64,000 nucleotides of DNA. Source: Candidatus Moraniibacteriota bacterium. Lineage in GTDB: Bacteria; Patescibacteriota; Minisyncoccia; Moranbacterales; UBA2206. The notes beneath the pieces are model-generated. The model was given only the letters and a program-made list of their open reading frames with translations. It ran no database searches and was not told where the DNA came from. The position numbers were made by a program, and so were the translations under genes. Below are positions 1,293-45,747 of the stretch, piece after piece (within the stretch, counting starts at the first letter, position 1; every line of letters begins with the position of its first letter). Where the stretch lies: contig JBAQNM010000005.1 of the NCBI GenBank assembly GCA_049303795.1, forward strand, positions 35,228 through 99,227, in the 5' to 3' direction.

Positions 1293-1571
1293 TTACAACA
1301 AATTTAAATTCTTACGTAATCTGCGCAGTTCTTCTTCCTTAGATGAATCTTCTTGCGTCACCCTCTCTAGACGCTTCTTTTTTCCATCCAATTCAACTCG
1401 GACACGATCTGCGTCTCTGGTTAATTTTCTGATATCCATATCTAATTGACCTTTTTCATTAGTTAATCTTCTCTTATCGGACTCAATAATCAATATCTCC
1501 ATTTGAATTCGTCTTTTTTGACTTTCTTTGGCAGCCACATCTTGACCACCTGAAATTTTTTGCGTATACAT
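1293..1571 (-). CDS. Hypothetical coiled-coil protein
   Basis: 92-aa ORF, highly charged with heptad-like R/K/E/L pattern (RLERVTQEDSSKEEELRRLRKNL). Packed 14 nt upstream of mnmA on the same strand. Confidence 0.4.
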   Translation of the reverse strand: MYTQKISGGQDVAAKESQKRRIQMEILIIESDKRRLTNEKGQLDMDIRKLTRDADRVRVELDGKKKRLERVTQEDSSKEEELRRLRKNLNLL

Positions 1572-1585
1572 ATTTATCTTTGATT

Positions 1586-2659
1586 TTATCTTATTATCCC
1601 TCCACCCAATATTTCTCCATTTTTATCATAAAACACCGCCGATTGACCTTGCGAAACTGCTCTTTGCGGTTTTTTAAATTCTAGCATATAATTTTTTCCT
1701 GTTTTATTTATTTTTATTATAGCATATTCCAAAAAACTATGGTAACGAATTCTCACTAAAACCGTTAATGGTAATTTAGGGCAATCATCTATCCAGGAAA
1801 TTTGCTTTAAGTTGATTTTAGTTTTAGAAAGTGCCTCATGTATTGAGTTATTTGTCACAATCAATGTGTTTTTTTTCAAATTTTTGTTCACTACAAAATA
1901 TGGTCCAGATCCTCCGATATTAATACCTTTACGTTGTCCGTTGGTATAAAGTAATAGTCCTCGATGTTCACCGATAACAACACCTTCCGTATTCATTATT
2001 TTACCCTTTTTTAATTGAACATTTTTAGCCAAAAATTCCTCCAAATCATTATCATCCATAAAACAAACGTCTTGCGATTCTTCTTTGTTAAAAACTGGCA
2101 AATTAAAATTTTTAGCTAACTCACGAATTTTTTCTTTCGTATAATCGCCCAAAGGTAACAAAATTTTGGCTAATTGCTCTTGCTTTAATCTATAAAGAAA
2201 ATATGATTGATCTTTTTTTTCATCCTTTGCTTGGAATAGGCCATATCTTAATTTTCCTTTTTTGTTTATTCTTTTTATTTTAGCATAATGTCCAGTTGCT
2301 ATATAATCTATTTTTAATTCTTTAGCAGCTTTCAATAATAACTTAAATTTAATATGTTCGTTGCAAAAAATACAAGGATTTGGCGTCCTTCCTTTGGAAT
2401 ATTCATCTAAAAAATATTTAATTACTTTTTTTCTAAATTTTAATTTTGCATCAATAATTTTCAAGGGAACATTTAAAATCTTACAGATTTCTTTTGCATC
2501 AGCCAATGATTTATTTGCTTTATCTTGTTTTTCAGACAATAACAAAAAAGCTGCCTCAACATGGTAGCCATTTGCCTTGAGTAATGCTAGAGTCACAGCA
2601 GAATCTACACCACCAGAAATTCCAACTAAAATTTTCTTCCTATCTTTTTTTTCTAACAT
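1586..2659 (-). CDS. mnmA: tRNA-specific 2-thiouridylase MnmA
   Basis: PP-loop motif ILVGISGGVDSAV at the N-terminus. Conserved CIFCNEHIKF region and C-terminal beta-barrel region typical of MnmA/TrmU. 357 aa. Confidence 0.9.
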   Translation of the reverse strand: MLEKKDRKKILVGISGGVDSAVTLALLKANGYHVEAAFLLLSEKQDKANKSLADAKEICKILNVPLKIIDAKLKFRKKVIKYFLDEYSKGRTPNPCIFCNEHIKFKLLLKAAKELKIDYIATGHYAKIKRINKKGKLRYGLFQAKDEKKDQSYFLYRLKQEQLAKILLPLGDYTKEKIRELAKNFNLPVFNKEESQDVCFMDDNDLEEFLAKNVQLKKGKIMNTEGVVIGEHRGLLLYTNGQRKGINIGGSGPYFVVNKNLKKNTLIVTNNSIHEALSKTKINLKQISWIDDCPKLPLTVLVRIRYHSFLEYAIIKINKTGKNYMLEFKKPQRAVSQGQSAVFYDKNGEILGGGIIR

Positions 2660-2823
2660 ATCACTGTTTCAATTCATTTCCCGCAGGATTAAGCATTTTT
2701 GATTTGGGTGCTGCTTCTAAGATCTCATCCCCAACAGACAAAACTTTCCAAATCATCAAAAATCCCATAATAAGCATTAGAATAATAAGTAGATAATTAT
2801 AATTACTTTGATTAAAATTAAAG

Positions 2824-4689
2824 TTATTCATTATTTTTATTTTTACTTTTATTAATCAAATCTCTAATACCTTCCGAATCAATATTGAGTGGCCTTTTTG
2901 GAGTTTTAAATTTCTTTGGGGCTATATTAGAAATTTGATTAAGACTAATCGTTTTATTATTATAAATTTGGCCCTTTGATTCAAATTTATCAGGAGTTTC
3001 ATTTAATTCTTCCTCTGTTTTCCTGCTAACTACAGACACTGGATCAGGAGCCTCGATTACTTTTTTTTTACTTTCCTGCTCTGTCATCGCTCTTGCCTTA
3101 ATGCGTTGATATTCCTTAAGACATTCCTTGCAAAAAGTTTTACGACTAGGATCAGGCTTGAAAGGAACGGTAATTTTTTCGTCACAAGTATAACAAGTCG
3201 CTTCGAATAATTCCATTTGCGGTTTAATTTCATTTTGAATAAAAGTTTTTTCCGATTGTTTATTTTCCTGAGCTCTCATTTCCTGAGGAATTTGCTGTTG
3301 TTGTTTTGTTTCCGTATTTATGTAGGTTACCTTTTCTGCTGGCCTAATAATTGTCTCCGTTTGATTATTTCGTAAAATATTATTTTCCCCATCAAAACAC
3401 TCCATCCCGCTCCAACGTGCAATTTTATCTGCCACTTCTATGCTTGATTTTCCATATCGTTCACGGGAAATAGCTATTACCTTTTCAACATTCATATCCG
3501 TATCAGAAAGGTCGACCGGCAATAAAGTTCTGGCAGAAAAAGCGTCTCCGGCAATTCCGTCAATCATTAATTTCAGATAAATATCATACTTAGATAGATT
3601 GATAATATCATTCATTAAAAAAACTGGATCAAATTCTTTTTCTAAAGCTTCCGCATCTTCCGCTCCAACTCGAAAAGTCACCATAGTACCAACATTACCA
3701 AAAATGGCGTCCTTAACTGTCGCATTACCATCAAAAATTAATTGATTAATGTATTGATGAGCCAATATTAAACACAAGCGATATTTTCTAGCTTCAGATA
3801 AGATATTAGCAAAAGACTCTGTGGCAAAATTTTGAAATTCATCAACATATAAATAAAAATCCTTACGCTCTTCTTCAGGAACATCTACGCGACTCATTGC
3901 TGCCAATTGAATCTTAGTTATAATCATGCCTCCAAGTAAGCGCATTGCATCTTCTCCCATCCTACCCTTAGACAAATTAACAATTAAAATTTTCTGATTA
4001 TCCATAATCTCACGCATATCAATTGTTGATTTTGGCTGACCAATAATATGCCTCACTAAAGTATAAGACAAAAATTGTCCAACTTTATTTTGGATTGCTG
4101 CCACTGCTTCTTTTCTAAATTTATCATCCCACTTATCAAATTCGTTAATCCAAAAAGCTTTCACCACCGGATCAGTTATTTTTGTATAAATTCTTTTCCT
4201 GAAATTAGCATCAGACATCATACGATTTACCCCCAATAGTGTTGAACCAGGATAATCCAAAAGTGCTAGAATAGCATTATTTAAAATATACTCCATGCGA
4301 GAGCTCCAAACATCCGGCCAGATTTTTTTGAAAACGCCCATCATTCCCGATGCAATAAGATTTTTTTTGTCCGGATCAACTGCTTCCAAAATATTGAAGG
4401 CCACTGGAAATTCAGTATCTGATGGATTAAAATACACAACGTCATTAATGCGATTATTTGGAATTGCTTTCAGCATTTTTTCGGCGAATTCGCCGTGAGG
4501 ATCAACAACACAAAGTCCCTTTCCATTGCGAATATCTTGAATCGCCATATTTTCCAAAAGACTAGATTTTCCCATACCAGTTTTTCCGATAATATACATG
4601 TGCCTTCTGCGATCATCTTCTTTAATACCAAAAATCCGCTCTTGATTTCGAAAGTTTGTTTTGGCAAAAAAATTAATATTACTATTCAT
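2824..4689 (-). CDS. P-loop ATPase of the TraD/VirD4/HerA-FtsK superfamily (type IV secretion/coupling-protein-like DNA-translocase family) with a C-terminal zinc ribbon
   Basis: Walker A IIGKTGMGKSS followed by VVDPHGEF. Walker B-like FYLYVDEFQNF. Conserved AHQY and Arg-finger-like region. C-terminal CYTCDEKI...FCKECL CxxC..CxxC ribbon. No N-terminal TM segments. Confidence 0.6.
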   Translation of the reverse strand: MNSNINFFAKTNFRNQERIFGIKEDDRRRHMYIIGKTGMGKSSLLENMAIQDIRNGKGLCVVDPHGEFAEKMLKAIPNNRINDVVYFNPSDTEFPVAFNILEAVDPDKKNLIASGMMGVFKKIWPDVWSSRMEYILNNAILALLDYPGSTLLGVNRMMSDANFRKRIYTKITDPVVKAFWINEFDKWDDKFRKEAVAAIQNKVGQFLSYTLVRHIIGQPKSTIDMREIMDNQKILIVNLSKGRMGEDAMRLLGGMIITKIQLAAMSRVDVPEEERKDFYLYVDEFQNFATESFANILSEARKYRLCLILAHQYINQLIFDGNATVKDAIFGNVGTMVTFRVGAEDAEALEKEFDPVFLMNDIINLSKYDIYLKLMIDGIAGDAFSARTLLPVDLSDTDMNVEKVIAISRERYGKSSIEVADKIARWSGMECFDGENNILRNNQTETIIRPAEKVTYINTETKQQQQIPQEMRAQENKQSEKTFIQNEIKPQMELFEATCYTCDEKITVPFKPDPSRKTFCKECLKEYQRIKARAMTEQESKKKVIEAPDPVSVVSRKTEEELNETPDKFESKGQIYNNKTISLNQISNIAPKKFKTPKRPLNIDSEGIRDLINKSKNKNNE

Positions 4690-4701
4690 ATGATTTTTAT
4701 A

Positions 4702-5976
4702 TTATTCAATGGGTAGATTAGCAGGGGCCACTCCAAGTCTGGAGGTTGTTTGTGAAATAGCAGGAGATTTAACTGTAATATTAGGAAAGTGATACATTGT
4801 TGCCAATTCCTTAGTAGAAAGGATTAGATTATACCCATCCATATTCCTTCTGCGATATCGATCATATATTTTTCGTTTGCGGAAATCAGCTCTTTGTTTT
4901 GTGAAAAAAATTGTACCAGCTGTTTTACTAACTGCCTCTGGCTTTACTTGATTCAAATTCAAATCATTAAATTGTTTGATTGCGCCAATAAAAGCACCAC
5001 AATAAGCCTTATCAAAACCATCTCTTTTTCCGATATAAATCATACGCATTTTTGTTTTGAAAAAATTTTTTCCTAAATTTTCCTCTACTGCCTTAAGAGT
5101 TTCTCTTTCTACGGGCGAAAGACGCATATCCAAAGGCTGCTCTTCTTTTTTAGCAGAAACCGTTTTAAATTCTACTGGACCTGATAAGGCTGCAAAAAGA
5201 TTTGAAAAAATATCTAATAAATGATCAAGAAAACCCATTGGAGCAGATACTGTTCTGCCTTTTAATTTATCAAGTAGCGCTTTTCCACCTTTAATTGATT
5301 CGCCCTCCTGAATCGGTGTAGACATATACTGTAGCCAGATGTGCTGACCTGGCCCAAGCGTTCCTAATTGCTCAACAAGTGCTGCCATCGGATCAATCAT
5401 TTCTCCTGTAATACTTTCCTCGAATTGGTCATAAGTCTTAATTGGATAATAAGGATCTTTTTGCACAAAATCAAAATCAGTGCCCCACAAATCCCAATCG
5501 CGATTAGGAACAATCTTGGGAAATTTATTATAATAATCCTCTACTTCTAAAATTTGCGCCTCAGGAAATTGAGCATAAATCTGTGCTTCAACCATATTGC
5601 GCCGACTCTTAACGGTTCGAATATAATAATGCACCCGACCTTCTTCTCCTACCAATTCAAAACTAAACGGATCCTGCCTAAAGAATCCGCCTATTTTTTC
5701 ATCAAAAGGATTGGGTGTCATAATAACACCAGCTAGTCCTGTAAAAAATATCTCCATCGGTTTTGGTCCTCGCTCCACATCTCGTGGCGGAATAATCTCC
5801 AGCATTGTCCAGTTATACTTACTGTTATAAGAATTGTCAGCGTAAATAGCAACGTATTCAAACCACATGACATCAAAGATGTACCAAAGAGGCCAAACTA
5901 GAATCGCCCACCAAGCATAATAAAAAACCGTTCCAAAAGATTTAAATACTTCAAAAAAATTTACTGAAATATCCAT
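4702..5976 (-). CDS. Hypothetical N-terminally membrane-anchored protein, co-operonic with the ATPase
   Basis: 424-aa ORF with two N-terminal hydrophobic helices (TVFYYAWWAILVWPLWYIFDVMWF) then a soluble domain. Only 12 nt upstream of the ATPase gene on the same strand. Confidence 0.55.
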   Translation of the reverse strand: MDISVNFFEVFKSFGTVFYYAWWAILVWPLWYIFDVMWFEYVAIYADNSYNSKYNWTMLEIIPPRDVERGPKPMEIFFTGLAGVIMTPNPFDEKIGGFFRQDPFSFELVGEEGRVHYYIRTVKSRRNMVEAQIYAQFPEAQILEVEDYYNKFPKIVPNRDWDLWGTDFDFVQKDPYYPIKTYDQFEESITGEMIDPMAALVEQLGTLGPGQHIWLQYMSTPIQEGESIKGGKALLDKLKGRTVSAPMGFLDHLLDIFSNLFAALSGPVEFKTVSAKKEEQPLDMRLSPVERETLKAVEENLGKNFFKTKMRMIYIGKRDGFDKAYCGAFIGAIKQFNDLNLNQVKPEAVSKTAGTIFFTKQRADFRKRKIYDRYRRRNMDGYNLILSTKELATMYHFPNITVKSPAISQTTSRLGVAPANLPIE

Positions 5977-6025
5977 TTATTTTTTATTTTTAAGCTTATC
6001 TTTTTTAAAACTAAAAATCGAATTT

Positions 6026-7084
6026 TTATCTTTTCAAGCTATACCATTCTCCTTTTCGATTAAATAATTTAGCATTATTTAAATTGATTGCGATTGTTGC
6101 TTTTTTCACTTTTCGCAACTTAAGGACTTCTTGCATAATATCATCTTGTCTTATTGGTTTTCCGTTTTTTTCTAAAATATTTTTCAAAACATCTTTAATT
6201 GCTCCTTTATAATAACCCCATTCACTAAGCGCGTAAATACCCCTTCCAATCAAAACAAACCTGTCGTCCTTGATTAGCTCATTGTGTATAGTTTGCGGGT
6301 GAGCTTTTTTAGCACCTAATTTATGCTTATCAATTAATTTTGTAATTTGCGTAAAATGCAATGGACTGCCTTCTTCTTTTAAAATAAGATAGATTTTCTC
6401 TCTGCTACCGCGAGGATTTATCTCTGGCCAGTCGTGTAAACCCCATTTTTTAAACTGATTACTTTTAACCTTGATTGAGCTTTCTAAAAAATTTAATATT
6501 AGTTTTTTAGAACAATTTGGAAATATAACTGATAATTTTTTAAAAATTTCATCACTAGTCAGTGTCTTCTTTTCTTTTTTCAAGATGTTCTCAGCTTCAG
6601 CAATAACCATTTTTGCTTGACCTAGAATTTCCTTTGAAATTACCCATGATCTTTCAATAATGGTTTTTTCAAAAACAACATGTATTCTTTTGGAATGATT
6701 AACCAAAAAACGCAAAGCATTCTCTTCTCTTGCTAATTTCTTTTGATTCAAATGCGAAACAGCATTGTCCTCTTTTACTATACCACAATTATCCTCAATC
6801 GTAAAAATAAAAATATTTTCAATCTCTCTGAATTCTGCTTCATCACACTTTTTGGCAATATGCTTTTTATAATCAGTGATAATTTGACGTACACGCTCCC
6901 TTGTGACCTTGTGGTCATTTCCAATTTTATCCAAAGTTTGCACGGAAAAATTATCAGCTAAACCAAATCGCTGTTTAAAGATATTTTGTGCTCGCTCTGG
7001 GAAATGAGCCAATAAACTCATTGCCACATTGAAAAATTCAATATTTTCAGCTTTATTAAGCTCTTTTTTAAATTTTGGCTCCAT
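6026..7084 (-). CDS. Putative transcription regulator: sigma-70 region-4-like HTH plus C-terminal HARE-HTH-like winged helix
   Basis: N-terminal ERAQNIFKQRFGL..FSVQTLDKIGNDHKVTRERVRQIITDYKKHI matches the sigma70 region 4 consensus (RFGL...TLEEIG...VTRERIRQIE). C-terminal GSPLHFTQITKLI...HPQTIHNELIKDDRFVLIGRGIYALSEWGY matches the HARE-HTH pattern (G.P..F.EI...I...P..TV...L..D.RF...GRG.Y.L.EW). Confidence 0.6.
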   Translation of the reverse strand: MEPKFKKELNKAENIEFFNVAMSLLAHFPERAQNIFKQRFGLADNFSVQTLDKIGNDHKVTRERVRQIITDYKKHIAKKCDEAEFREIENIFIFTIEDNCGIVKEDNAVSHLNQKKLAREENALRFLVNHSKRIHVVFEKTIIERSWVISKEILGQAKMVIAEAENILKKEKKTLTSDEIFKKLSVIFPNCSKKLILNFLESSIKVKSNQFKKWGLHDWPEINPRGSREKIYLILKEEGSPLHFTQITKLIDKHKLGAKKAHPQTIHNELIKDDRFVLIGRGIYALSEWGYYKGAIKDVLKNILEKNGKPIRQDDIMQEVLKLRKVKKATIAINLNNAKLFNRKGEWYSLKR

Positions 7085-7179
7085 TTATTATTTCTATTTA
7101 GTTAGTTTAGACTTCCGCAAATACTAGCACATATTCAATAAATTTGTCAAGCTTTTATCATTCATGCTATTCTTTTCAC

Positions 7180-8259
7180 ATGAAATATCTACATGCCCTA
7201 AATAAAATCGAAGGTGTCGGTTCAAGAAAAATAAAAAAATTATTGACCTTTTTTAATAGTCAAGAAAATATTTGGAATGCCAATATCTCTGATTTAAAAA
7301 CTGCCTTAGGTGAAAATAAATTGGCGGAAAAAATTTTTAATGAAAAATCAAAGATCGATCCTGACTATGAGTGGGTTAAATTGGAAAAAGAAAATATTCG
7401 CATAATTAAACTCTCTGACCCTGAATATCCCGCTCTTCTTAAAGAAATCCACAATCCACCATATCTCATATACACAAGAGGGAAACTTGATTTTAATCAA
7501 CACCCAACTATTGCTATTGTTGGCTCACGAAAATATTCTTCTTACGGAGCGCAAATTGCCGCTAATTTTTCTCGCGACCTTACAAACGCCGGATTTATCA
7601 TTGTCAGTGGATTAGCATTGGGTATTGATGCAATTGCACATAGAAACGCATTAGATACGAATGGAAAAACAATTGCTGTTTTAGGTAGCAGTATCGATAA
7701 TCAAAATATTTATCCTCGTGCTAATTATCAACTAGCGCAAGATATTATCTTTAAAGATGGATTACTCTTAAGCGACTACCCGCCAGAAACACCAGCTTCA
7801 AGCTTTACTTTTCCCGCTCGTAATCGTCTAATTGCCGGCCTATCTCTAGGAACGCTTATTATTGAAGCAGGAGAAAAGAGTGGCGCACTTATTACTGCTC
7901 GCATGGCGCTCGAAAATAACCGTGAAGTCTTTGCTATTCCTGGCTCTATTTTTTCAGAAAATTCTATCGGCACTAACAATCTAATTAAAAATGGCGCGAA
8001 ATTAGTAACCAATCTAGGCGATATCTTGGAAGAATTAAACTTTTCACTAGAAGAAAAAATCGAAGCTAAGCCTTCAAAAATAGCCGAAAATAAAGAAGAG
8101 GAAGTTTTATTAACTATTCTCTCTGGCAAACCAACTCACATTGACAATATCGGAAAACTATCTAAACTAGGAACTGCCACTACGACATCTGTTCTTACAA
8201 TGATGGAAATTAAAGGCTGGACAAAAAATGTTGGTGGGCAAAATTATATTCTTTTGTAA
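7180..8259 (+). CDS. dprA: DNA processing protein DprA (Smf)
   Basis: Rossmann-like core AIVGSRKYSSYGAQIAANFSRDLTNAGFIIVSGLALGIDAIAHRNAL typical of DprA. The track ORF starts at TTG 7144. The in-frame ATG at 7180 (MKYLHALNKIEGVG...) is the preferred start. Confidence 0.85.
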   Translation: MKYLHALNKIEGVGSRKIKKLLTFFNSQENIWNANISDLKTALGENKLAEKIFNEKSKIDPDYEWVKLEKENIRIIKLSDPEYPALLKEIHNPPYLIYTRGKLDFNQHPTIAIVGSRKYSSYGAQIAANFSRDLTNAGFIIVSGLALGIDAIAHRNALDTNGKTIAVLGSSIDNQNIYPRANYQLAQDIIFKDGLLLSDYPPETPASSFTFPARNRLIAGLSLGTLIIEAGEKSGALITARMALENNREVFAIPGSIFSENSIGTNNLIKNGAKLVTNLGDILEELNFSLEEKIEAKPSKIAENKEEEVLLTILSGKPTHIDNIGKLSKLGTATTTSVLTMMEIKGWTKNVGGQNYILL

Positions 8260-18944: not shown

Positions 18945-20411
18945 ATGGAAAAAATTAAAAGAACTTTATTTTTTTGGTCGTTAGTGCTAATTTTTTGCAT
19001 AGTTACGCCAATTATTGTATTTCAAGCTAAAGGCTACCGCTTTGACTGGCATCGAGGCGTTTTTGTTTTTAGCGGAACGATTTCTTTTAAGGCCAACCCG
19101 CAAAACATTTCAGCCCAATTAAATGGAGTCCTAAGCGAAAATAAAAGGATAAACCGAATAAACGGTGCTTTTAACATTTCAGGACTATTGCCAGATGATT
19201 ATAATTTAAAAATTTCAGCTCCGGACTTTTATCCTTGGGATAAAAAAATCGATGTTCATAGCGGGATCACTTCTGAATTTTGGAATGTCGTTCTTACTAG
19301 GACTAACTATGAGTCAACTAAATATGAAGCGACACTAGGTATTGAAAAATTTTTCACCTCACCAAAAAATGATTTTATGGCCTATACGCAGACCACCGAC
19401 AATGAATTATCTGTGAAAATACTTGAGCTAGACAATTCGAATATAGTTGGCACCTACTTACTCCCAGATTGGAAATTACTTGCAGATGAGAAAAAAGAAA
19501 ATATTGAATGGTCACCAGAAGAAAATTATCTCTCTGTTCCAGTTGAAAATAATGCCACCAGCAATTATTACATAATTGATTTGTCAGCAAAAAATCTTAC
19601 AAATTTGAATGAATTTTTTGGCAAAAATGATATAAAAAATGTTCGTTGGGATCCTAAAGAAAAAGGCTATTTCTTTTTTCTTGATAACAACACTCTTTTT
19701 CGTGGAAACATTTCAGATAAAAATTATCTAGCTATTATCGCGGAAAATACGTCCGCCTTCGAACTCTCTTATGATTCTGTCTATTATATACAACTGCCAA
19801 ACAACCTCATATTCAAAACGAGCTTAGACGGCAAAAAAGAAAGAACCCAAATAACTGACAATTTTCCCGGGGCTGCAGATTCAATAATCAGTCGCATAAT
19901 TATTTATGACGAGTCAAGAATTGCTTTCTTAGATCAAGCAAAAAATTTATTCATCTATAATAATGCAACTCGCGATGAATATTTTAAGTTAATTGGTAAT
20001 AACGTTTTAGAAATGCATTTTTCTAACGACGGAAAAAAACTTCTATTCTGGACTGCCAATGAAATATCTGTTTATTTTACTCGAGATTGGGATGTGCAAC
20101 CAATTCGTAAAGAAAATGACTTGCAAAATATCACCCGCTACTTTGAACCATTACAAAATATTCAATGGTATAAAGATTATGAGCATGTTATTTTTTCTGT
20201 CGGAAAATATACCAAACTTATCGAACTGGATCCACGTGATCATCGAAATTGTTCAGACTTAATCAACACTGAAATAGAAAGTCCTTTTATAAATTATAAT
20301 CACGGACTAGAAAAATTATTTTTTACCAACATTGAAAATGGACAGCTAATTTTGAATTCAATCAATTTTCCTGAAGCAACAACCATTCTTGATACTTTTG
20401 TTGGTGGATAA
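18945..20411 (+). CDS. Exported or membrane-anchored PEGA-domain protein with beta-propeller-like repeats
   Basis: N-terminal signal/anchor LFFWSLVLIFCIVTPII. PEGA-like segment (ISFKANPQNISAQLNGVL...YNLKISAPDFYPWDKKIDVHSGI). Then repeated W..E/D..YL motifs (WSPEENYLSV, WDPKEKGYFFF) suggesting a TolB/WD-like propeller. Confidence 0.6.
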   Translation: MEKIKRTLFFWSLVLIFCIVTPIIVFQAKGYRFDWHRGVFVFSGTISFKANPQNISAQLNGVLSENKRINRINGAFNISGLLPDDYNLKISAPDFYPWDKKIDVHSGITSEFWNVVLTRTNYESTKYEATLGIEKFFTSPKNDFMAYTQTTDNELSVKILELDNSNIVGTYLLPDWKLLADEKKENIEWSPEENYLSVPVENNATSNYYIIDLSAKNLTNLNEFFGKNDIKNVRWDPKEKGYFFFLDNNTLFRGNISDKNYLAIIAENTSAFELSYDSVYYIQLPNNLIFKTSLDGKKERTQITDNFPGAADSIISRIIIYDESRIAFLDQAKNLFIYNNATRDEYFKLIGNNVLEMHFSNDGKKLLFWTANEISVYFTRDWDVQPIRKENDLQNITRYFEPLQNIQWYKDYEHVIFSVGKYTKLIELDPRDHRNCSDLINTEIESPFINYNHGLEKLFFTNIENGQLILNSINFPEATTILDTFVGG

Positions 20412-20492: not shown

Positions 20493-21863
20493 CTATTGAT
20501 TTTCACTTAGAATCCAGTCTTTATTTAGATCAACCTGATAGGTAGTTTTGTTTTGGCTTTTATAAATAATAATGATCTCGCCTTTGACATCACCTGAGCC
20601 AGATTGTCTTTGAATAAGTAAATCATAATTTTCCACTGCATTTTGCGGCAATGTGTAGTAAAATTCTATTGTTTTAGTTTGCCCAAGCGGAACACCCACT
20701 AATGTTCCAACGAATTTCTTCTCCAAATCTTCTCCAAATTTTTTTTCTCCCAAATCTTTTGAGTCAGTAAGCCAACTACCCTTCGGGGTATAGACGCGTA
20801 AATATGTCAAATAATCTTTTGTCATCCAATCTTTTTCTTTAGCTGTGTGCTGATAAGTAATTTTTAAACTTGCCTTTGGCATATCGCCTGACAAATCAAC
20901 TGTATACACAAAGGATCTTCGCATATAATAATCACTTTTCCAAGCGCCCATATTTGCATCCACCATCATCAAATAGTCACTTGTCCAATTTTTCCTCACA
21001 CTACCATCCCACTCAGCCTTTTTAGCCTGATTTTCCAATTCAACATCCTTAAAATAAAGCTGGATATCCTTGCGATTCAAATCATCCAAAATAACTTCCG
21101 CTAATTTAATTTTCTGCGAAATACTCATCGAAAAAACTTTATTTTGAATTTCCTTAGCTAATAAATTCATCACGCTCTTTCTCTCTCCTTCTTTAATCCC
21201 CTGATTAATATAACCTTGTTCAACTTGATGCTCTAAGGTCAAAACAGCATCTTCGCTATCATAGGTGCCTGGAAATCCTTCAATTTCAATTGGTCCGGTG
21301 ACTTTTAAAAACGACGTCAACACATTACTATTAATCGCAATGATGCCATCAAAATTTTCTTGTCCTTGCCCCATTTTATAAAATTCCTCCGCTTTTTTAG
21401 CATTTTCCAAAAAATCAGGAGACCAGTTGGAGTCACGCAATTTCCAAGAAGATACTCGTAGCGTTTCTTTTATTGGATATGGAGGCAAAACATCATCAGG
21501 AATGCGTCCATCGAAATTAGAAAGGTCATGAGTTTGCAACTCTAAGATCTGACCGTCCTTCATCTTTAAAATTCCAAACGAACCTATATAGCCTCCTCCG
21601 GGACGAAGTTCCATATTGTTTTGAAAAAGCAACATAAAAGTTTTTTCTTTTCCATCTTTTTGAAAAAGATATTCAGCAAAACTGGACATGGTTTTAAATT
21701 TGGCTTTCTTAAGCTCATCAATTGGTAAGAAATCAATAACTGAGTTAATTAAACCAAAATTAGTAGTATTTCTGATTTGCCAAAAAAAACACCAACCGGT
21801 CAAGAAAATAACCGAAATTGACCAGAAAATAATCCAGAATTTTTTTGAGTATTTTTTTGCCAT
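20493..21863 (-). CDS. Hypothetical membrane-anchored extracytoplasmic protein, first gene of the glycan cluster
   Basis: 456-aa ORF with one N-terminal TM (FWIIFWSISVIFLTGWCFFW) then a large soluble domain. No catalytic motif recognised. Adjacent to two GT4 genes on the same strand. Confidence 0.55.
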   Translation of the reverse strand: MAKKYSKKFWIIFWSISVIFLTGWCFFWQIRNTTNFGLINSVIDFLPIDELKKAKFKTMSSFAEYLFQKDGKEKTFMLLFQNNMELRPGGGYIGSFGILKMKDGQILELQTHDLSNFDGRIPDDVLPPYPIKETLRVSSWKLRDSNWSPDFLENAKKAEEFYKMGQGQENFDGIIAINSNVLTSFLKVTGPIEIEGFPGTYDSEDAVLTLEHQVEQGYINQGIKEGERKSVMNLLAKEIQNKVFSMSISQKIKLAEVILDDLNRKDIQLYFKDVELENQAKKAEWDGSVRKNWTSDYLMMVDANMGAWKSDYYMRRSFVYTVDLSGDMPKASLKITYQHTAKEKDWMTKDYLTYLRVYTPKGSWLTDSKDLGEKKFGEDLEKKFVGTLVGVPLGQTKTIEFYYTLPQNAVENYDLLIQRQSGSGDVKGEIIIIYKSQNKTTYQVDLNKDWILSENQ

Positions 21864-21884
21864 ATATAATTATTACTTTTAATA

Positions 21885-23018
21885 TTATTTACTTTTTCTA
21901 TCCTGAACTTCTCTATATAATTTTTCAATTCGTAAAACAATTTTATCCCAATCATAAAGCTCCTGAGCTAATGCTCGACTATCTTCACCAGCCTTTTTGG
22001 CCAACTCTGGATTGTTTAGAGCAAACAGTAATTTATCTCCCAAATCTTTCTCATCCTTGTTATGAAAGACAAAGCCAGTACCCTTTAAAACATCTGTGTT
22101 TTCTGGAATATCACTAATCAAAATAGCCTTCCCATAACCCATCGCCTCCAAAAGTGCCAGCGACATCCCCTCTGACTCAGATGGTTGAATAAAAAGAAAA
22201 CAATGCGAAAAAAGTTGTTCTAATTTTTTTCCGCTAACCGTACCGGTAAAAATAATATTTTTATTATTTTTGGCTAAATCTTTAAGGTAACCAACATACT
22301 CGTCTGTAAAAGATCCGTCACCCGCTATTACTAATTTTTTTCCTTGATTTAAATTTTTCTCACAAAGTTTATTGAATGCATTGATTAGATAATGCACGCC
22401 TTTGTGCCTAATCAGACGACTCGCTGAAAGAATATATTCATTTTTTTGCAAATTCCAATTAGCCAATGCATCGTGATTAGGATTAAACCTAATTTCTGCA
22501 CCATTAGGAATAATTACAGGACTACTTCCATATTTTTCTTTAGCATGATCATAAAGCATTTGGCTAATTGCAATCGTCTCATCAGGAATGGTACAGGTTA
22601 ATTTTTCTGAAAAACGCAAATAAGCTCGCGCAAAAACACCCCATTTTTTATGAAAGTAATCTTGGCATTGAAAAGTAGAGATAATTACAGCTTTTATTTT
22701 CAGTATTTTTGGAATTATACTTAAAGATGTCGGTCCAATTGAGTGATAATGAATAACGTCATAATTCTGAAATAATGCATGCATTGTAGCAAAAAAAGTA
22801 TGACTAATAGCATCTAAATTCTTTGTTGGAATACTAGGCAAGTGAATAAGTTTTGCGCCTTCATATTCATGCAAATTTTTGTCTGTATAATTATTTCTCA
22901 CATAAACAAAGACCTCATGACCATTTCTTGCCATTCTTGTCGCCACTTCTTCAACATAGCGTTCAACTCCGCCTGTCTTTACCGGTATTCCTTTTTGCCC
23001 AATATAAGCTATTTTCAT
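21885..23018 (-). CDS. Glycosyltransferase family 4 (GT-B, retaining)
   Basis: N-terminal GGVERYVEEVATRMARNGHEV. C-terminal EGMSLALLEAMGYGKAILISD (EX7E-type motif). Confidence 0.8.
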   Translation of the reverse strand: MKIAYIGQKGIPVKTGGVERYVEEVATRMARNGHEVFVYVRNNYTDKNLHEYEGAKLIHLPSIPTKNLDAISHTFFATMHALFQNYDVIHYHSIGPTSLSIIPKILKIKAVIISTFQCQDYFHKKWGVFARAYLRFSEKLTCTIPDETIAISQMLYDHAKEKYGSSPVIIPNGAEIRFNPNHDALANWNLQKNEYILSASRLIRHKGVHYLINAFNKLCEKNLNQGKKLVIAGDGSFTDEYVGYLKDLAKNNKNIIFTGTVSGKKLEQLFSHCFLFIQPSESEGMSLALLEAMGYGKAILISDIPENTDVLKGTGFVFHNKDEKDLGDKLLFALNNPELAKKAGEDSRALAQELYDWDKIVLRIEKLYREVQDRKSK

Positions 23019-41070: not shown

Positions 41071-42633
41071 CTACAAATCGTTTCCGGAATACGACAAATT
41101 CAAACTCTTATTGATAAGCGGAAAATCAGGCACGATGTTGCCCGGTCCCATAATGCCAAAAAGTGCCCAATTACAAAAGGATGGATCACGCGGATAGCAT
41201 CTTTCGATCACACCATTCTTAATTTGCAAGGCACAGATTATTTCTCCTCTCCAAGATTCCACGGCACCAATCGCAAAACCATTCTTAACTTCGCATTTTT
41301 CAAAAACATCTCCTTCTCCTATTTTTTCCACTAAAGTTTTGAGTAAAATTATCGATTGTTCAATTTCTTTTATTCTCATTCTATAGCGAGCAAAAACATC
41401 AGTGCTTTTTTTGGTAATAACTTTAATTGGGAACTCTGCATATGAAGCATAAGGATGATCTCTTCTGACATCACGATCAACTTTGGAAGCACGCGCCGGT
41501 AAACCGACAGCCCCAAAAGCCTCAGCTGCCTCCTTGGGAAGTTCGCCCGTGTATTGCAACCGATCCAAAAAGCCCTCGCTATCCAGAGCAATTTCCACAA
41601 TTTTGTCTATTTCCTTAAAAACCCCTTGCGACACCACTAGTATTTTTTCTAAATTCTCCTTCTTAATATCACCTTTCATTCCTCCTGGAACAATCATCCC
41701 CCGCCAAAAACGATTACCACAAATATCAGCTGACAAGCGCATCATCCTTTCTTTAATGCGAAATCCATTGGCGGCGATAAAACTATACCCTGTTCCCATT
41801 CCTCCAATATTAGAAAGATCATGTGCATGCATTGTAATTCTTTCACATTCAGTGAGGATGGCTCGCAAAATTTGTGCTCTTTTTGGCACCGTGCAGTCGC
41901 TAATTTTCTCCACCGCTTGCGCATAGGCCAAAGAATGTGAAGCACTCATATCGCCAGAAATTCTTTCAATAAAGGGCAAAGCCTCGTTGATATTTTTTCC
42001 TTCCAATAATTTCTCCACTCCCTTATGAGTAAAAAATAATTTTCCTTCCAAAGTCAAGATTCTTTCTCCTGCCACATTAAAACAAAAATGTCCCGGCTCA
42101 ATAATACCAGCATGAATCGGTCCGACAGGAATTTCCATCACTCCCTCGCCTGTTACATGATGCATCGGATAAGGAACATTATCCTTGGACAATTTCGTAT
42201 TCCACTGAAAATCTTTTCTTAAGGGGTGTGTATTTTCTGGGATATTTTCATGATGCACCAATCTTCGCAGATCCGGATGTCCCACTGGCGTGATACCAAA
42301 CATATCGCGCAAATATCTTTCATACCAATGAGTTGCCATGATTGTTTTTGTCAAAGCCGGATACTGCGGATCGCTAGCCGGCACTTCGGCTGAAATTTTC
42401 AGCCATTTGCTTTCCTGATCCAAACTAAAAACAACGTGCACGACAAAATTTCCGGTTTCCTTGCGATTATCTGTTCCGAAAAGAAGAGACAGTGGAAGTT
42501 TATCCTCCTGGAATAACTCGGTGGAGATTTGCGCTAAATCGTTTCGAGAAACTTTAATACTCACCAAATCACTCCCTTCCTCAATACTAAGAATTTTTTC
42601 TTTGAATTTTTTAATAATTTCTTGAGTTTTCAT
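41071..42633 (-). CDS. Fused NuoC/NuoD-type large subunit of a group-4-hydrogenase-related (Ehr-like) complex, lacking [NiFe]-binding cysteines
   Basis: N-terminal NuoC-like part. Then GPIHAGIIEPGHFCFNVAGERILTLEGKLFFTHKGVEKLLE, the HycE/NuoD signature. Candidate L1 position reads ERISGDMSASHSLAY (no CxxC). C-terminal DPSFCNWA has one Cys instead of DPCxxC. Confidence 0.75.
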   Translation of the reverse strand: MKTQEIIKKFKEKILSIEEGSDLVSIKVSRNDLAQISTELFQEDKLPLSLLFGTDNRKETGNFVVHVVFSLDQESKWLKISAEVPASDPQYPALTKTIMATHWYERYLRDMFGITPVGHPDLRRLVHHENIPENTHPLRKDFQWNTKLSKDNVPYPMHHVTGEGVMEIPVGPIHAGIIEPGHFCFNVAGERILTLEGKLFFTHKGVEKLLEGKNINEALPFIERISGDMSASHSLAYAQAVEKISDCTVPKRAQILRAILTECERITMHAHDLSNIGGMGTGYSFIAANGFRIKERMMRLSADICGNRFWRGMIVPGGMKGDIKKENLEKILVVSQGVFKEIDKIVEIALDSEGFLDRLQYTGELPKEAAEAFGAVGLPARASKVDRDVRRDHPYASYAEFPIKVITKKSTDVFARYRMRIKEIEQSIILLKTLVEKIGEGDVFEKCEVKNGFAIGAVESWRGEIICALQIKNGVIERCYPRDPSFCNWALFGIMGPGNIVPDFPLINKSLNLSYSGNDL

Positions 42634-42644
42634 AAAAAATTTTT

Positions 42645-44123
42645 CTATTTAATGAATAAGAAGGTGCTTACTATATTTTCAATCAACTCTATTGAGCTTC
42701 CAATTGTGAACCACCAAGCTAAAAATATCAGAATTATAATTTCTATAACAATTATCGTGTGAGTACTATTCCATTTTTCTTTTTTAATTTTATCCTCCTC
42801 TTTTTCCTCTTGAGTATCAAAAACCATACTAACCGTCAAGAGTAACATCGCATAAGCAATTATTCCCAGAGCAATAAACAAGAAAATGGAAAGCACTGGA
42901 TAAAGAACAATCGCTTGTGAAAAAATTCCATATTCACTTACAAATAGGGCGGACGGTGGAATGGCAATAATCGCTACGATACCAAGAATAAAAAGAATGC
43001 TAGTATATTTTGAATACTTAAACATGTTTTTTATCTTGAATACTTTTGTTGTTTTCCACTTAAGCAAAATCTCGCCTGCTCCGAAAAATAAAGCTGACTT
43101 AGCAAAAGTGTGACCAATCATATGCATAACTCCAGCCATTGCGCCTACAGGAGAAAGTCCCAAGGAAAAAACAACCAAACCCATATGCTCAACACTGGAA
43201 TAAGCTAACATTCTTTTGTAATTCTTTTGAATAAGTATCATAAAAGTTGCCAGTAGTATAGAAAAAAATCCGAAAATCAAAAATAAATTATTAGTCCAAG
43301 CTGGATCCATAAAAGCACTGTCAGTGATAAATTTGAAACGTAAAATAGCATACAAAGCAACATTCAATAACACGGCGGAAAAAATAGCGGAGATCGGAGA
43401 TGGAGCTTTACTATGAGCATCCGGAAGCCAAGTATGCATTGGTGCCAAACCAACTTTTGTGCCAAAACCGATAAACAGAAAAATGAAAGCTAATTTTAGA
43501 ATATCTTTTGGAATAAGATGGGCGTTTTTAGTTAGATTATCCAAAAGGAAAATATTTCCTTCCTCCATTCCACCAACATGAGCGCCATAGCTAAAAAGCA
43601 AAATACCAATCAATCCCAAACTAATACCAGTTGAGCAAAGAACCATATATTTCCAAGCCGCTTCCATGCTTATTTTCTTGCGATATAATCCGACTAAGAA
43701 AGTTGAGGAAAGAGTTGTTCCCTCCAAAAACAACCAGAGCAAAAGAGTATTATTTACCAAAACAGTCAAGATCATGCACAAAACAAACAATTGAAACAAG
43801 ACAAAATATTTTTTATAGTCTGAAAAATTAATTACTTTTTCCTCATACTCATGCCCAATATAACGAACACTGACAATTGTAGAAAAAATATAAATAATGG
43901 AAATAAGCGTTATCATTAATGCTGAAAAATAATCCAGTTGCCACCAAGAACCAACTATTTTATTTTGAGAAAGAAATAGAAAAAATAAAGCAGAAAAAGA
44001 TAGTGCTGACCCGCCAATTAAAGAAAAAAATAAATTGCTCCATCTTACTATTTTTTCAGTTTTTGCCACTGCTGAAAAAATGGCGGCTAATATAAATGGG
44101 ATAATTAAAATAGTCATATTCAT
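42645..44123 (-). CDS. Proton-pumping antiporter-like subunit (NuoM/NuoN/MrpD/HyfD family)
   Basis: 492 aa with 14 predicted TM helices. GLAPMHTWLPDAHSKAPSPISAIFSAVLLNVALYAILRF core motif of the Proton_antipo_M family. Confidence 0.8.
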   Translation of the reverse strand: MNMTILIIPFILAAIFSAVAKTEKIVRWSNLFFSLIGGSALSFSALFFLFLSQNKIVGSWWQLDYFSALMITLISIIYIFSTIVSVRYIGHEYEEKVINFSDYKKYFVLFQLFVLCMILTVLVNNTLLLWLFLEGTTLSSTFLVGLYRKKISMEAAWKYMVLCSTGISLGLIGILLFSYGAHVGGMEEGNIFLLDNLTKNAHLIPKDILKLAFIFLFIGFGTKVGLAPMHTWLPDAHSKAPSPISAIFSAVLLNVALYAILRFKFITDSAFMDPAWTNNLFLIFGFFSILLATFMILIQKNYKRMLAYSSVEHMGLVVFSLGLSPVGAMAGVMHMIGHTFAKSALFFGAGEILLKWKTTKVFKIKNMFKYSKYTSILFILGIVAIIAIPPSALFVSEYGIFSQAIVLYPVLSIFLFIALGIIAYAMLLLTVSMVFDTQEEKEEDKIKKEKWNSTHTIIVIEIIILIFLAWWFTIGSSIELIENIVSTFLFIK

Positions 44124-44145
44124 AAAAAATTGGATGTTAAAAAAA

Positions 44146-45747
44146 TTATTGTTCGGTTAATTCACATAAATCTTCCGTATCCGCGCTTCCGCATAAATCA
44201 TTTATTTGACCGCTTAGTATCGATAAAATATAGGCCGTGGCCACCGTTACAGTAAAGATGCCAAATTCAATCATGATTGGCAATGAGCCCACGGTTGCCA
44301 AAACAAAAATAGCAATCCCGTTTTCTATCACTAGGAGTCCAACGACTTGAGAGAAAATATTTCTTTTAACAATCATCATCGTTATGCCTAAAAGAATTGA
44401 AGTGACTGAAGCATAAAGTAATGAATCCCATTCTACTAACCCCACGACAGAAACATTTCCCAAAATAAAATAACTCGCGATTAAAATAATAATGGCTAAA
44501 AAATAACTCTTTCCTGGACGTAAAAAAGAAGGCAGATTTGTTAGACTTTTCTTAGCATGACTGGAATGATTAATCACATAAGGCACAACTAAAACTTTGA
44601 TTACGATTGTGAAAATGGCAAATATCCATAAATGAATTTTTTCTTCTTCACCTACCAAAGAAATGAGTCCCCAAGCAATTCCAGCAATAGCCAAAGACGA
44701 AAAAGCATAATAACGCAAAATCGCTCTCAAGCGGACTCGACCGAAAAGAAGCACGATGCAAACTACAGTAAAAAGAGAAAACAAAGCGTGGCATTGCAAA
44801 GATATTTTCATAAATGTTGTCAGAAAAGCCACGATCATTCCCAAAAATGCCACAGCAAAAGCCACGGAAAAATATTCTGACATTCTGTAAAATCGCATCT
44901 TAACCAAAACAGATTCCAAGAAAGCCAAAAATCCCATTGCCACAATAATTTTTATCAACGCAAAAAATAAACTGCTCATAAAAATACCCGCACTCCAAGA
45001 GGATACTCCCATTAAAGTTCCGGGGAAGATAAAATTAGCCACTAGCAAAGAAAAAACTGTCAATTTTATAGCAGAGGCATATTCCAATAAAGCCAGATAC
45101 TTGCCGGAATATTCCAGTATCATCGCTTCATGCACCATTGTGAGCTCTAAATGAGTAGCGGGATTGTCCACGGGATAACGAGCATTTTCTGCCAACGCCA
45201 CTAAAATCAAAGCAATGATTGTCAAAATTAAATATGGCTCAAAAAAATCGATTCGATCAAGAAGCATTCCGTTAATGGTTGACTCTTTAGTGACAAAACT
45301 AATCGTAGAAAAAACCATAATTATCACCGGCTCCAAAAGAGCACTGATAGTCATTTCCCGACTTGAACCCATTCCGCCAAAAGCGCTACCAGCATCCAAT
45401 CCCCCCAACACTAAAAATATTGACCCAACAGACAACACTCCCGCTACCACTAAAAAATCACTGAGAGCCATTCCGCTAGCATTAGTAAAAATAAGCGGGA
45501 GAATCACCACCAAAAAAACTGCGCTTCCGAAAACCACAAACGGCACTATCCGAAAAACCCAAGAAGTCACATTTGATATGACCATTTCCTTTTTTAGTAA
45601 AGTAGCAAAAGTAACATATGGCAAAAAAGGCGAAGCACCTTTTCTCCCCTGAAGACGAGCTTTGAGAAAACGGACCAAGCCTGAAGCGAAAGGAGCGACA
45701 GCTAAAATGAAAATAATTTGAATTAATGTAGAAATTACTATGTTCAT
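44146..45747 (-). CDS. HycD/NuoH-like membrane subunit fused to an additional C-terminal membrane domain (HyfE-like?)
   Basis: N-terminal LVRFLKARLQGRKGASPFLPY matches the NuoH/HycD RMQ.R.GP motif. 533 aa is about 220 aa longer than NuoH, with an extra polytopic C-terminal half. Confidence 0.65.
   Translation of the reverse strand: MNIVISTLIQIIFILAVAPFASGLVRFLKARLQGRKGASPFLPYVTFATLLKKEMVISNVTSWVFRIVPFVVFGSAVFLVVILPLIFTNASGMALSDFLVVAGVLSVGSIFLVLGGLDAGSAFGGMGSSREMTISALLEPVIIMVFSTISFVTKESTINGMLLDRIDFFEPYLILTIIALILVALAENARYPVDNPATHLELTMVHEAMILEYSGKYLALLEYASAIKLTVFSLLVANFIFPGTLMGVSSWSAGIFMSSLFFALIKIIVAMGFLAFLESVLVKMRFYRMSEYFSVAFAVAFLGMIVAFLTTFMKISLQCHALFSLFTVVCIVLLFGRVRLRAILRYYAFSSLAIAGIAWGLISLVGEEEKIHLWIFAIFTIVIKVLVVPYVINHSSHAKKSLTNLPSFLRPGKSYFLAIIILIASYFILGNVSVVGLVEWDSLLYASVTSILLGITMMIVKRNIFSQVVGLLVIENGIAIFVLATVGSLPIMIEFGIFTVTVATAYILSILSGQINDLCGSADTEDLCELTEQ

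Follow-up and report, generated by a model that had tools for sequence, protein, structure and literature searches.

How is a coupling-protein-like ATPase built, and what would it serve, where it is encoded in the chromosomal core of a Patescibacteria genome? Patescibacteria account for a large part of bacterial diversity, and most of their core, phylum-enriched genes await explanation. ATPases resembling type IV coupling proteins (T4CPs) occur there at about two copies per genome and almost never beside a type IV secretion system (T4SS): 5,713 VirD4-like homologues were reported in 2,918 of 3,035 genomes (~96%), only 148 of them near virB4, and VirB4 was found in 80% of the genomes (Quinonero-Coronel et al. 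2025, PMC12102498). The question is raised here by a stretch of 64,000 nucleotides from a Candidatus Moraniibacteriota contig (JBAQNM010000005.1, positions 35,228 to 99,227; hereafter the window), in which three co-directional genes encode a protein joining sigma region 4 to a HARE-HTH domain (gene 1, here called sigHARE), a 424-aa protein (gene 2) and an ATPase (gene 3), divergently from dprA. An initial annotation, made from the sequence alone, had located these three open reading frames (ORFs) and dprA, and the positions were confirmed (Table 1). Genes 2 and 3 are, by sequence comparison, a single T4CP encoded in two pieces. We consider it probable that the locus is a vertically inherited core operon encoding sigHARE and this split T4CP, expressed from a conserved sigma-70-type promoter and working by the mechanism proposed below.

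The matches obtained place the ATPase, within the FtsK-HerA superfamily, on the TraD/VirD4/TrwB (T4CP) branch. The Pfam model TrwB_AAD_bind matched residues 24-344 above its gathering score (1.9e-14), together with DUF87 and TraG-D_C, while the NCBIfam matches comprised TraD, the VirD4-like CD1115 family, TrbC and CedD, all well under their equivalog cut-offs. The closest relatives in PDB sequences were TrwB (1e9r/1gl6, with Walker A and Walker B both aligned) and then DotL. HerA-type signals were weak, confined to the P-loop (DUF87 and PADLOC HerA) and below the T4CP matches, and FtsK_SpoIIIE, Ftsk_gamma and FtsK_4TM gave no Pfam match for the window proteins. The profile searches thus place the ATPase, as had been supposed at first reading, with T4CPs and not in a non-translocase AAA family. 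The absence of a membrane anchor, supposed in the same place, agrees with hydropathy, since no transmembrane-like segment was detected (Kyte-Doolittle KD19 maximum 1.15), and residue 1 aligns to residue 239 of TrsE, the VirB4 homologue of pSK41, where the motor of that protein starts. The Walker A motif (G35-KTGMGKS-42) followed by VVDPHGE and the C-terminal CxxC..CxxC are present in the translation, as annotated, and so is a Walker B motif (F278-YLYVDE-284). From the N-terminus, the protein is made up of a motor (nucleotide-binding domain and all-alpha domain), then a low-complexity linker leading to the zinc ribbon, and finally a charged tail. Residues 1-415 are near-invariant in 68 homologues, and the linker and charged tail are variable. 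The ribbon matches Pfam zf_Tbcl_2 (3e-8, residues 493-526) and TIGR04272 (1.4e-8), and is present in 57 of the 68 homologues, including 27 of 38 distant ones.

The protein encoded just upstream had no match in the searched Pfam, NCBIfam and PADLOC model sets, which includes the absence of CagE_TrbE_VirB and TraC_F_IV matches in Pfam and NCBIfam. Precomputed Pfam annotation tags its family as PF26449 (DUF8128), for which 2,480 representatives (50% identity) were retrieved at E<=1e-3; mean column identity within Moranbacteria is 67%. When all ORFs of 160 related loci were clustered, the DUF8128 and ATPase families were joined through one ORF of 854 aa (L135 14096-16660), with DUF8128 at residues 27-408 and a T4CP motor at residues 411-836. 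At its junction (...EEMASFWHMP...APPPTNMP-KEGIVLGRASYRDEESTVRMTRDDRRRHVYTIGKSGSGKS), the C-terminal motifs of DUF8128 are directly continuous with the N-terminus of the motor. Such fusions of ~850 aa make up a large family: PF26449 and T4CP domains occur together in all of the 120 clusters listed, whose proteins are 72-100% identical and come from Magasanikbacteria and other Patescibacteria; on this sequence evidence, the fusion is no assembly artefact. No zinc-finger Pfam family is listed for these fused paralogs. Among the top 150 DUF8128 representatives, ATPase fusions were not found, only low-complexity linkers. Split and fused forms therefore coexist, and the copy linked to sigHARE is complete as a T4CP only together with the upstream DUF8128 gene.

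The fused paralogs have a genomic context of their own (L162 7506-12266; L164 7505-12070; L135 12497-17156). An ORF of 163-164 aa precedes them by 1-4 bp; it has no Pfam match, a variable, charged N-terminal half and a conserved C-terminal half, and the 164-aa version shows no similarity to sigHARE. Downstream lie dnaX and a Peptidase_C39_2 gene, with a solitary DUF8128 gene a few kb off. On one such contig, a 1-Mb Patescibacteria sequence, an RVT_1 reverse transcriptase gene beside a bAvd gene forms a pair resembling a diversity-generating retroelement between dus and the solitary DUF8128 gene (L164 14932-16349).

Outside Patescibacteria, the counterpart of the fusion is a long T4CP of Actinobacteria. 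The C-terminal half of an 812-aa T4CP from a plasmid of Embleya sp. NBC_00896 (WP_331738717) is the motor, and its N-terminal half aligns to the DUF8128 profile (hhalign, E 3.6e-5) across PELAALAHLP...PPARIP, the counterpart of the DUF8128 tail motifs. Its locus, a monoderm T4SS cluster, also encodes a VirB4-like ATPase (TraG P-loop/AAA_10/TraC) together with PrgI-family, replication-relaxation and NlpC/P60 proteins. With a deeper DUF8128 profile, the N-domains of three actinobacterial T4CPs aligned over 317-375 columns at P 93-95% and E 7e-9 to 3e-7, against E 0.77 for a reversed template and E 0.17 for an unrelated profile. The fusion junction and the homology to the N-domains of long T4CPs together identify the gene pair, as far as sequence can, as one T4CP of the long-N-domain monoderm subtype split in two. 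The suggestion in the initial annotation that the 424-aa protein could supply the missing anchor is upheld by both observations, and the unusual domain composition that it had remarked on mostly comes down to the splitting of a T4CP subtype already known. DUF8128 thereby gains an assignment as a T4CP N-domain, apparently VirB4-N-like in fold.

The likeness to VirB4 comes from structure prediction. The AlphaFold2 (AF2) model of the 424-aa protein (pLDDT 71.5, pTM 0.69) gave, in a Foldseek search of PDB, 13 best matches that were all TrwK/VirB4 of the R388 T4SS (E 7e-5 to 1e-3), with unrelated folds beginning only at E>0.02; no sequence-level link of this protein to any solved structure was found (best E 1.1). 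For the model of the fusion (pLDDT 75.9), ranks 1-10 were alignments to full-length VirB4/TrwK that covered ~910-950 columns (E 2e-12 to 3e-10), while TrwB, Cagbeta, DotL and HerA matched only its motor half. Because the alignment of the fused model with VirB4 is collinear, DUF8128 takes the position of the VirB4 N-domain. The motor of the fused relative superimposes on TrwBdeltaN70 chains (411-427 residues) over ~410-450 columns (TMt 0.60-0.66, rmsd ~5 A), with an all-helical insertion at residues ~511-625 of the model, and a corresponding all-alpha domain is predicted for the window ATPase from this relative, which is 46% identical to it.

Across the family, DUF8128 proteins are laid out as an N-terminal helix or hairpin, an alpha/beta domain, an ELAxxxHFP motif, a linker and a terminal PPxNLP-type motif. 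The ELAxxxHFP motif occurs in 127 of 150 representatives and the terminal PxNLP-type motif in 128 of 143; the low-complexity linker between them varies from 19 to 270 aa. At least one clear transmembrane-like segment lies within the first 90 aa in 125 of 143 representatives, and none lies beyond in 133 of 143. In the window protein, AF2 places helices at residues 7-25 and 27-45 of this region. The 424-aa protein is best described, we infer, as bitopic or anchored, with a large soluble domain.

Whether the pair and its neighbour belong together was assessed in two sets of relatives, with counts taken over assessable loci: a close set of 80 species-level genomes at the level of Moranbacteria (43-78% identity) and a distant set of 80 metagenome loci (~30% identity to the window protein). 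Conservation of the neighbourhood, which the initial annotation had singled out as a check, was borne out. The ATPase gene lies directly downstream of DUF8128 in 76 of 76 close loci and in 48 of 66 distant ones (and nearby in three more), and sigHARE lies directly upstream of DUF8128 in 71 of 72 close and 32 of 61 distant loci. The three-gene arrangement is far beyond chance. Order, strand and sequence of the module are kept in the close set at a housekeeping level, similar to topA and relA. The module is thus a conserved, vertically inherited core feature of Patescibacteria.

This conservation bears on the defence or conjugation remnant proposed in the initial annotation, considered here as a remnant of a conjugative or other mobile element or as an anti-phage defence module (for example MADS mad8-like or HerA-like). 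The top PADLOC match is indeed mad8 (2.6e-17), with weak matches to HerA, MzaA matches sigma region 4 of gene 1, and plasmids of Actinobacteria, Firmicutes, a roseobacter and haloarchaea carry relatives of the ATPase motor at 31-41% identity. However, the surroundings contain no other defence gene and no gene for mating-pair formation (MPF), a relaxase, an integrase or a tRNA, GC content is even across the region, the linkage is kept at 76/76 in a housekeeping-level context, and the S. epibionticum orthologues described below carry a core, Patescibacteria-enriched flag. Scans of 72,556 plasmids and, twice, of 2.9 M viral contigs found no relative of DUF8128. The catalytic motifs of the ATPase are intact and near-invariant, so its gene is not decaying. 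A remnant or defence role is contradicted by this core, vertical, housekeeping context, and we hold it to be very improbable. A MADS system in particular was rejected: the mad8 match is unaccompanied by other mad genes, gene 2 has no PADLOC match, the context is core, and the PADLOC matches of gene 1 are weak and non-MADS (MzaA 1.2e-4, PDC-M38B 0.0095).

Among the plasmid relatives is a stand-alone T4CP motor of 395 aa on a Sulfitobacter mediterraneus plasmid (L165 6935-8122, NZ_CP081110), 41% identical to the window ATPase, which has no N-domain and is flanked by transposases on a non-mobilizable plasmid. Soluble T4CP motors of this clade thus exist outside Patescibacteria.

The three genes form a tight operon, as initially annotated: the intergenic gaps are 49 and 12 bp, no credible internal terminator was found, and the promoter is phylogenetically footprinted. 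The predicted promoter is the top promoter-like site in 2400-7500 (10/12 matches, with TG). Of 70 related loci, 66 have TTGACA in the 150 nt upstream of the sigHARE gene (57 have CTTGAC and 61 have GACAAA), with the positions of TTGACA concentrated 60-72 nt ahead of the start codon. Terminator-like sites inside the operon, of which 6 were seen against 2.6 +/- 1.5 expected, all fall within coding sequence and were discounted. For dprA, an ATG start at 7181 (MKYLHALNK...) is more plausible than the listed TTG at 7144; the divergent intergenic region then measures 96 bp and contains the operon promoter.

Table 1. Features of the operon and of dprA (window coordinates; residues refer to the encoded protein)
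Feature	Position	Strand	Basis
Gene 1 (sigHARE, 352 aa)	6026..7084	-	ORF + Pfam/NCBIfam
Gene 2 (DUF8128 protein, 424 aa)	4702..5976	-	ORF + PF26449 tag
Gene 3 (T4CP-type ATPase, 621 aa)	2824..4689	-	ORF + Pfam/NCBIfam/PDB matches
dprA	7144-8259	+	DNA_processg_A 3e-79 + DprA_WH (Pfam)
Predicted sigma-70-type operon promoter (TTGACA, 18-nt spacer, extended -10 TGnTAGTAT)	7121..7150	-	
Gene 1, Sigma70_r4 helix-turn-helix, residues 24-70	6875..7015	-	Pfam 2e-7
Gene 1, HARE-HTH winged helix, residues 231-289	6218..6394	-	Pfam 6e-11
Gene 2, N-terminal aromatic-rich hydrophobic predicted membrane anchor, residues ~16-44	5845..5931	-	
Gene 2, C-terminal tail, residues 389-424 (KELATMYHFP ... APANLPIE), putative ATPase-docking segment	4705..4812	-	Invariant columns
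Gene 3, motor domain, residues ~18-415	3445..4638	-	Near-invariant in 68 homologues
Gene 3, Walker A (G35-S42)	4564-4587	-	
Gene 3, Walker B (F278-E284)	3838-3858	-	
Gene 3, CxxC-x17-CxxC treble-clef zinc ribbon (C499-x2-C502-x17-C520-x2-C523)	3121..3195	-	

The first gene of the operon encodes what its domain matches indicate to be a Patescibacteria-specific, multi-winged-helix DNA-binding protein composed of sigma region 4 and HARE-HTH. It matches the RNA polymerase delta model of NCBIfam (4e-10), and its PDB sequence matches are limited to sigma region 4 (residues 22-78). Sigma region 2 was not found in gene 1, and all NCBIfam sigma models scored far below their cut-offs; gene 1 is therefore not a sigma factor. 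Its orthologue in the Saccharibacteria member S. epibionticum, SEML1_0294 (349 aa, Sigma70_r4 at 27-72 and HARE-HTH at 225-283), has three consecutive winged-helix domains by DPAM, is essential by transposon sequencing (Tn-seq) and immediately precedes the gene SEML1_0293, for a 'T4SS DNA-binding domain' protein of 921 aa whose T4CP domains start at residue ~402 (Wang et al. 2023, PMC10633639). SEML1_0293 is non-essential, with normalised reads falling from 5,817 to 1,372, about 4-fold (PMC10633639 Tables S1/S2). Both genes are flagged core and Patescibacteria-enriched in that data set and are not discussed in the text of the paper (PMC10633639). The domains read in the initial annotation of gene 1 are thus confirmed by Pfam, and the label of regulator is too narrow, since the sigHARE orthologue is essential and that of the ATPase is not; a further role of sigHARE is probably in general transcription or in the nucleoid. 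S. epibionticum also has a canonical, essential FtsK (PMC10633639), which rules out the module as an FtsK replacement.

In a different account of the locus, the split T4CP would act in trans as the substrate receptor of the chromosomal, pilus-bearing T4SS encoded elsewhere, recruiting protein effectors for delivery to the host, and sigHARE would be an unrelated, co-transcribed transcription factor. T4CPs are often encoded far from virB4, and the frequencies of VirB4 (80%) and of T4CP homologues (96%) across genomes would suit such a partnership (PMC12102498). The nearest relatives of both halves outside the CPR (Candidate Phyla Radiation) are T4CPs within monoderm T4SS clusters, and the near-absence of relaxases from Patescibacteria speaks against DNA conjugation of the classical kind. 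On the other hand, the T4SS genes of S. epibionticum are essential and its sigHARE-linked T4CP-like gene is not. That genome holds a second, essential T4CP-like paralog, SEML1_0142, behind the small essential ORF SEML1_0141 (PMC10633639), an order that mirrors the small ORF, fused T4CP and dnaX of Magasanikbacteria-type contigs, and this paralog is the better candidate for a T4SS partner. Only 148 of the 5,713 homologues lie near virB4, and a receptor for protein effectors leaves both the zinc ribbon and the conserved pairing with a DNA-binding protein unexplained. We regard this account as somewhat unlikely.

The position next to dprA suggested yet another role, already raised in the initial annotation, in natural competence: the split T4CP would be a cytoplasmic motor pulling single-stranded DNA through ComEC, as an analogue of ComFA, and handing it to DprA. 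In the window, the module and dprA are transcribed divergently, and 25 of 64 close loci have dprA no more than 3.5 kb upstream. A block of dprA, topA, sigHARE and T4CP also occurs in S. epibionticum, in the order dprA-x-topA-x-sigHARE-T4CP, with dprA five genes away; ComEC, ComF, DprA and the T4CP-like gene are all non-essential there by Tn-seq; and the com components conserved in CPR are ComEC, DprA and ComFC, the term 'ComFA' being absent from the main text (PMC10633639). In two of ~66 distant loci, comEC lies directly downstream of DUF8128 and is followed by pilM (L138 2997-6846; L148 5429-9115). In both, comEC is split into a Competence+DUF4131 gene and a separate metallo-beta-lactamase gene, after which come pilM and a response regulator. 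Against this role, dprA is upstream in 0 of 44 distant loci. The genes met most often upstream in the distant set are secA-secD-secF (~37 loci) and murB, and GT4 glycosyltransferase and DUF4012 genes, dus-dnaG-rpoD and DUF6580 occur there as alternative downstream neighbours. As secA-secD-secF, murB, dus-dnaG-rpoD and glycosyltransferases are more frequent beside the module, the adjacency of dprA, restricted to certain lineages, looks like backbone synteny, and we read all these neighbour adjacencies in that way and not as functional coupling. Adjacency of dprA and topA is, moreover, common in bacteria generally, and no T4CP is known to act with ComEC. Of the annotated competence link, which is weak, the adjacency to dprA stands and a conserved coupling is not supported, and the partner comEC or pilus genes looked for are absent from the 64-kb window. 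We judge this role quite unlikely.

As an observation on the sec neighbours, SecD in distant Patescibacteria carries an inserted PPIC-type peptidyl-prolyl isomerase domain (L082 2948-5032; L086 4792-6924).

For the split T4CP and sigHARE encoded in a vertically inherited core operon, we propose the following mechanism. The DUF8128 protein would sit in the cytoplasmic membrane by its N-terminal hydrophobic helix or hairpin, with its alpha/beta domain facing the cytoplasm. Its tail (ELATxxHFP ... PPxNLP) would dock the soluble 621-aa ATPase and so reconstitute a T4CP as in the fusions, whose chain runs on from this tail into the first strand of the motor. By analogy with TrwB, the motor would oligomerise, probably as a hexamer, and would spend ATP to engage a substrate and feed it towards a membrane conduit. 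This conduit would be encoded elsewhere, as the chromosomal T4SS of Patescibacteria or as ComEC, while sigHARE and the tethered zinc ribbon may serve as nucleic-acid or adaptor modules. Because of the all-alpha domain, the tethered ribbon and the co-transcribed multi-winged-helix protein, we tentatively name DNA or a DNA-protein complex as the likeliest substrate.

Several observations weigh against this interpretation. The linkage loosens with distance: sigHARE is not upstream in about half of the distant loci, and DUF8128 lacks an adjoining ATPase gene in 15-18 of them. VirB4/VirB6 or other T4SS genes, relaxase, integrase, comEC and pilin or pilus genes were not found in the 64-kb window, nor did a T4SS or relaxase family turn up among those recurrent neighbour clusters of the 160 related loci that were annotated. 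The window DUF8128 protein has a single hydrophobic stretch, weak by Kyte-Doolittle (KD19 maximum 1.33). Its likeness to the VirB4 N-domain is at the level of fold only, with TM-scores of ~0.3-0.37, because hhalign gave no signal, either with the shallow alignment against TrsD and TrsE or with the deep DUF8128 profile against TrsD, TrsE and the Embleya VirB4-like protein (E 0.2-0.7). Confidence in the AF2 models is moderate (pLDDT 71-76, pTM 0.54-0.69). The presence of the zinc ribbon in gene 3 does not correlate with that of sigHARE upstream (odds ratio 1.05, p = 1), and sigHARE may merely share an operon with the ATPase; it must have a role beyond it, since of the two orthologues only that of sigHARE is essential. 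Membrane topology, tail docking, oligomeric state, substrate, direction of transport and any physical part played by sigHARE are what we infer.

A bolder version of the DNA hypothesis would make the split T4CP and sigHARE a phylum-wide, T4SS-independent DNA-handling machine, with a membrane-tethered motor exapted from conjugation. Such a machine may pull DNA in via ComEC, replacing ComFA, or act as a membrane pump for DNA, whether chromosomal or host-derived. With the VirB4-like fold of its N-domain, it could also stand between VirB4 and canonical T4CPs in evolution. We consider this version unlikely; if true, a coupling protein would here have, for the first time, a housekeeping role outside conjugation. 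In any case, the module is tied to a conserved promoter and to a DNA-binding protein essential in S. epibionticum, and, as this species is genetically tractable and its T4CP orthologue dispensable, hypotheses of DNA uptake, DNA transfer and T4SS coupling are directly testable.

The rest of the window is consistent with a chromosomal core setting. Downstream of the operon lies mnmA, and the neighbours are housekeeping genes (mnmA, dprA, topA, relA/spoT, corA, cysS, dnaB and the F-type ATP synthase), accompanied by a complex-I-like module, aminoacyl-tRNA synthetase genes and glycosyltransferase genes; tRNA genes and integration hallmarks were not found in the window. A highly charged, coiled-coil-like ORF of 92 aa (1293-1571, minus strand) is probably a real small gene and is conserved just downstream of mnmA in at least 36 related loci. 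DUF4012 and GT4 glycosyltransferase genes lie at 20493-23018 (minus strand), ~15 kb from the operon, and a GT4-then-DUF4012 pair immediately follows DUF8128 in several distant loci (e.g. L092, L110 and L137); their proximity in the window is probably another trace of ancient backbone synteny. The complex-I-like run (41071-47735, minus strand) encodes a fused 30kDa+49kDa protein resembling the NiFe-hydrogenase large subunit (520 aa), an NADHdh protein (533 aa) and two Proton_antipo_M/Mrp-type subunits of 492 and 663 aa. Patescibacteria genomes normally lack respiratory complexes, so that this run is unusual there. Two long ORFs, one of 787 aa with a TTG start (61635-63998, minus strand) and one of 488 aa (18945-20411, plus strand), had no Pfam family at E<=1e-5.

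That Patescibacteria have orphan T4CP homologues is already published (PMC12102498). The assignment of DUF8128, the relationship of split and fused forms, the sigHARE operon with its promoter and the VirB4-N-like fold were not found in the searched literature; no literature on PF26449 was found, and a search combining HARE-HTH, sigma and Patescibacteria gave nothing relevant. The homologues counted in PMC12102498 and SEML1_0293/0294 of PMC10633639 belong to the same family as the window genes, and S. epibionticum shows the same order from sigHARE to T4CP with dprA and topA nearby. Its T4CP is fused, whereas that of the window is split and bears a zinc ribbon. Neither paper describes the DUF8128 half, the dichotomy of split and fused forms, the linkage to sigHARE or a function.

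Among more remote systems, RNA polymerase delta (HARE-HTH) and sigma-70 region 4 are the two modules joined in gene 1, which, unlike delta, has no acidic tail and has three winged helices, as in the S. epibionticum orthologue. FtsK/SpoIIIE and HerA share the ASCE P-loop superfamily with the ATPase and are hexameric translocases, FtsK being membrane-tethered and guided by a winged-helix DNA reader, its gamma domain. However, the window ATPase matches neither FtsK_SpoIIIE nor the gamma domain, its match to HerA is weaker than that to T4CPs, and it has no partner gene beside it of the kind found in HerA-NurA or HerA defence modules. VirB4/TrwK (with VirB3) has what appears to be the same layout of N-domain and RecA-like motor, and Foldseek places the 424-aa and fused models on full-length TrwK. 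In TrsD-TrsE of pSK41/pGO1, a VirB4-N-like protein has its own gene immediately upstream of that for the ATPase, which sets a precedent. In contrast to VirB4, TrsD and TrsE, the window pair shows no sequence-level similarity and no CagE_TrbE_VirB match, and its motor is closer to T4CPs.

With the T4CPs themselves (VirD4/TrwB/TraD/DotL; TrwB_AAD_bind, T4SS-DNA_transf and TraG-D_C), the module shares the Walker A/B motor and the all-alpha insertion; TrwB, Cagbeta and DotL are the proteins it matches best in sequence and structure, and in both the anchor is N-terminal to the motor. It differs from classical T4CPs in that anchor and N-domain lie on a separate polypeptide, in cis only in the fused relatives; in a large VirB4-N-like domain instead of a simple stub with two transmembrane segments; in the C-terminal treble-clef zinc ribbon; and in its setting, a chromosomal core set of the whole phylum with no T4SS or relaxase nearby. 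Two classical T4CP features, the anchor in cis and the T4SS/relaxase context, are thus lacking. The long actinobacterial T4CPs of Embleya and of Streptomyces sp. BHT-5-2 come nearest, with a collinear architecture of transmembrane anchor, a ~350-aa domain ending in PELAALAHLP...PPxxIP and a T4CP motor 32% identical to that of the window. They are single chains within a T4SS cluster (VirB4-like, PrgI-family and replication-relaxation proteins and a cell-wall hydrolase), whereas the window version is split and orphan, with a zinc ribbon and sigHARE as its partner. We would class the module as a split and orphan variant, encoded on the chromosome, of the long-N-domain monoderm T4CP.

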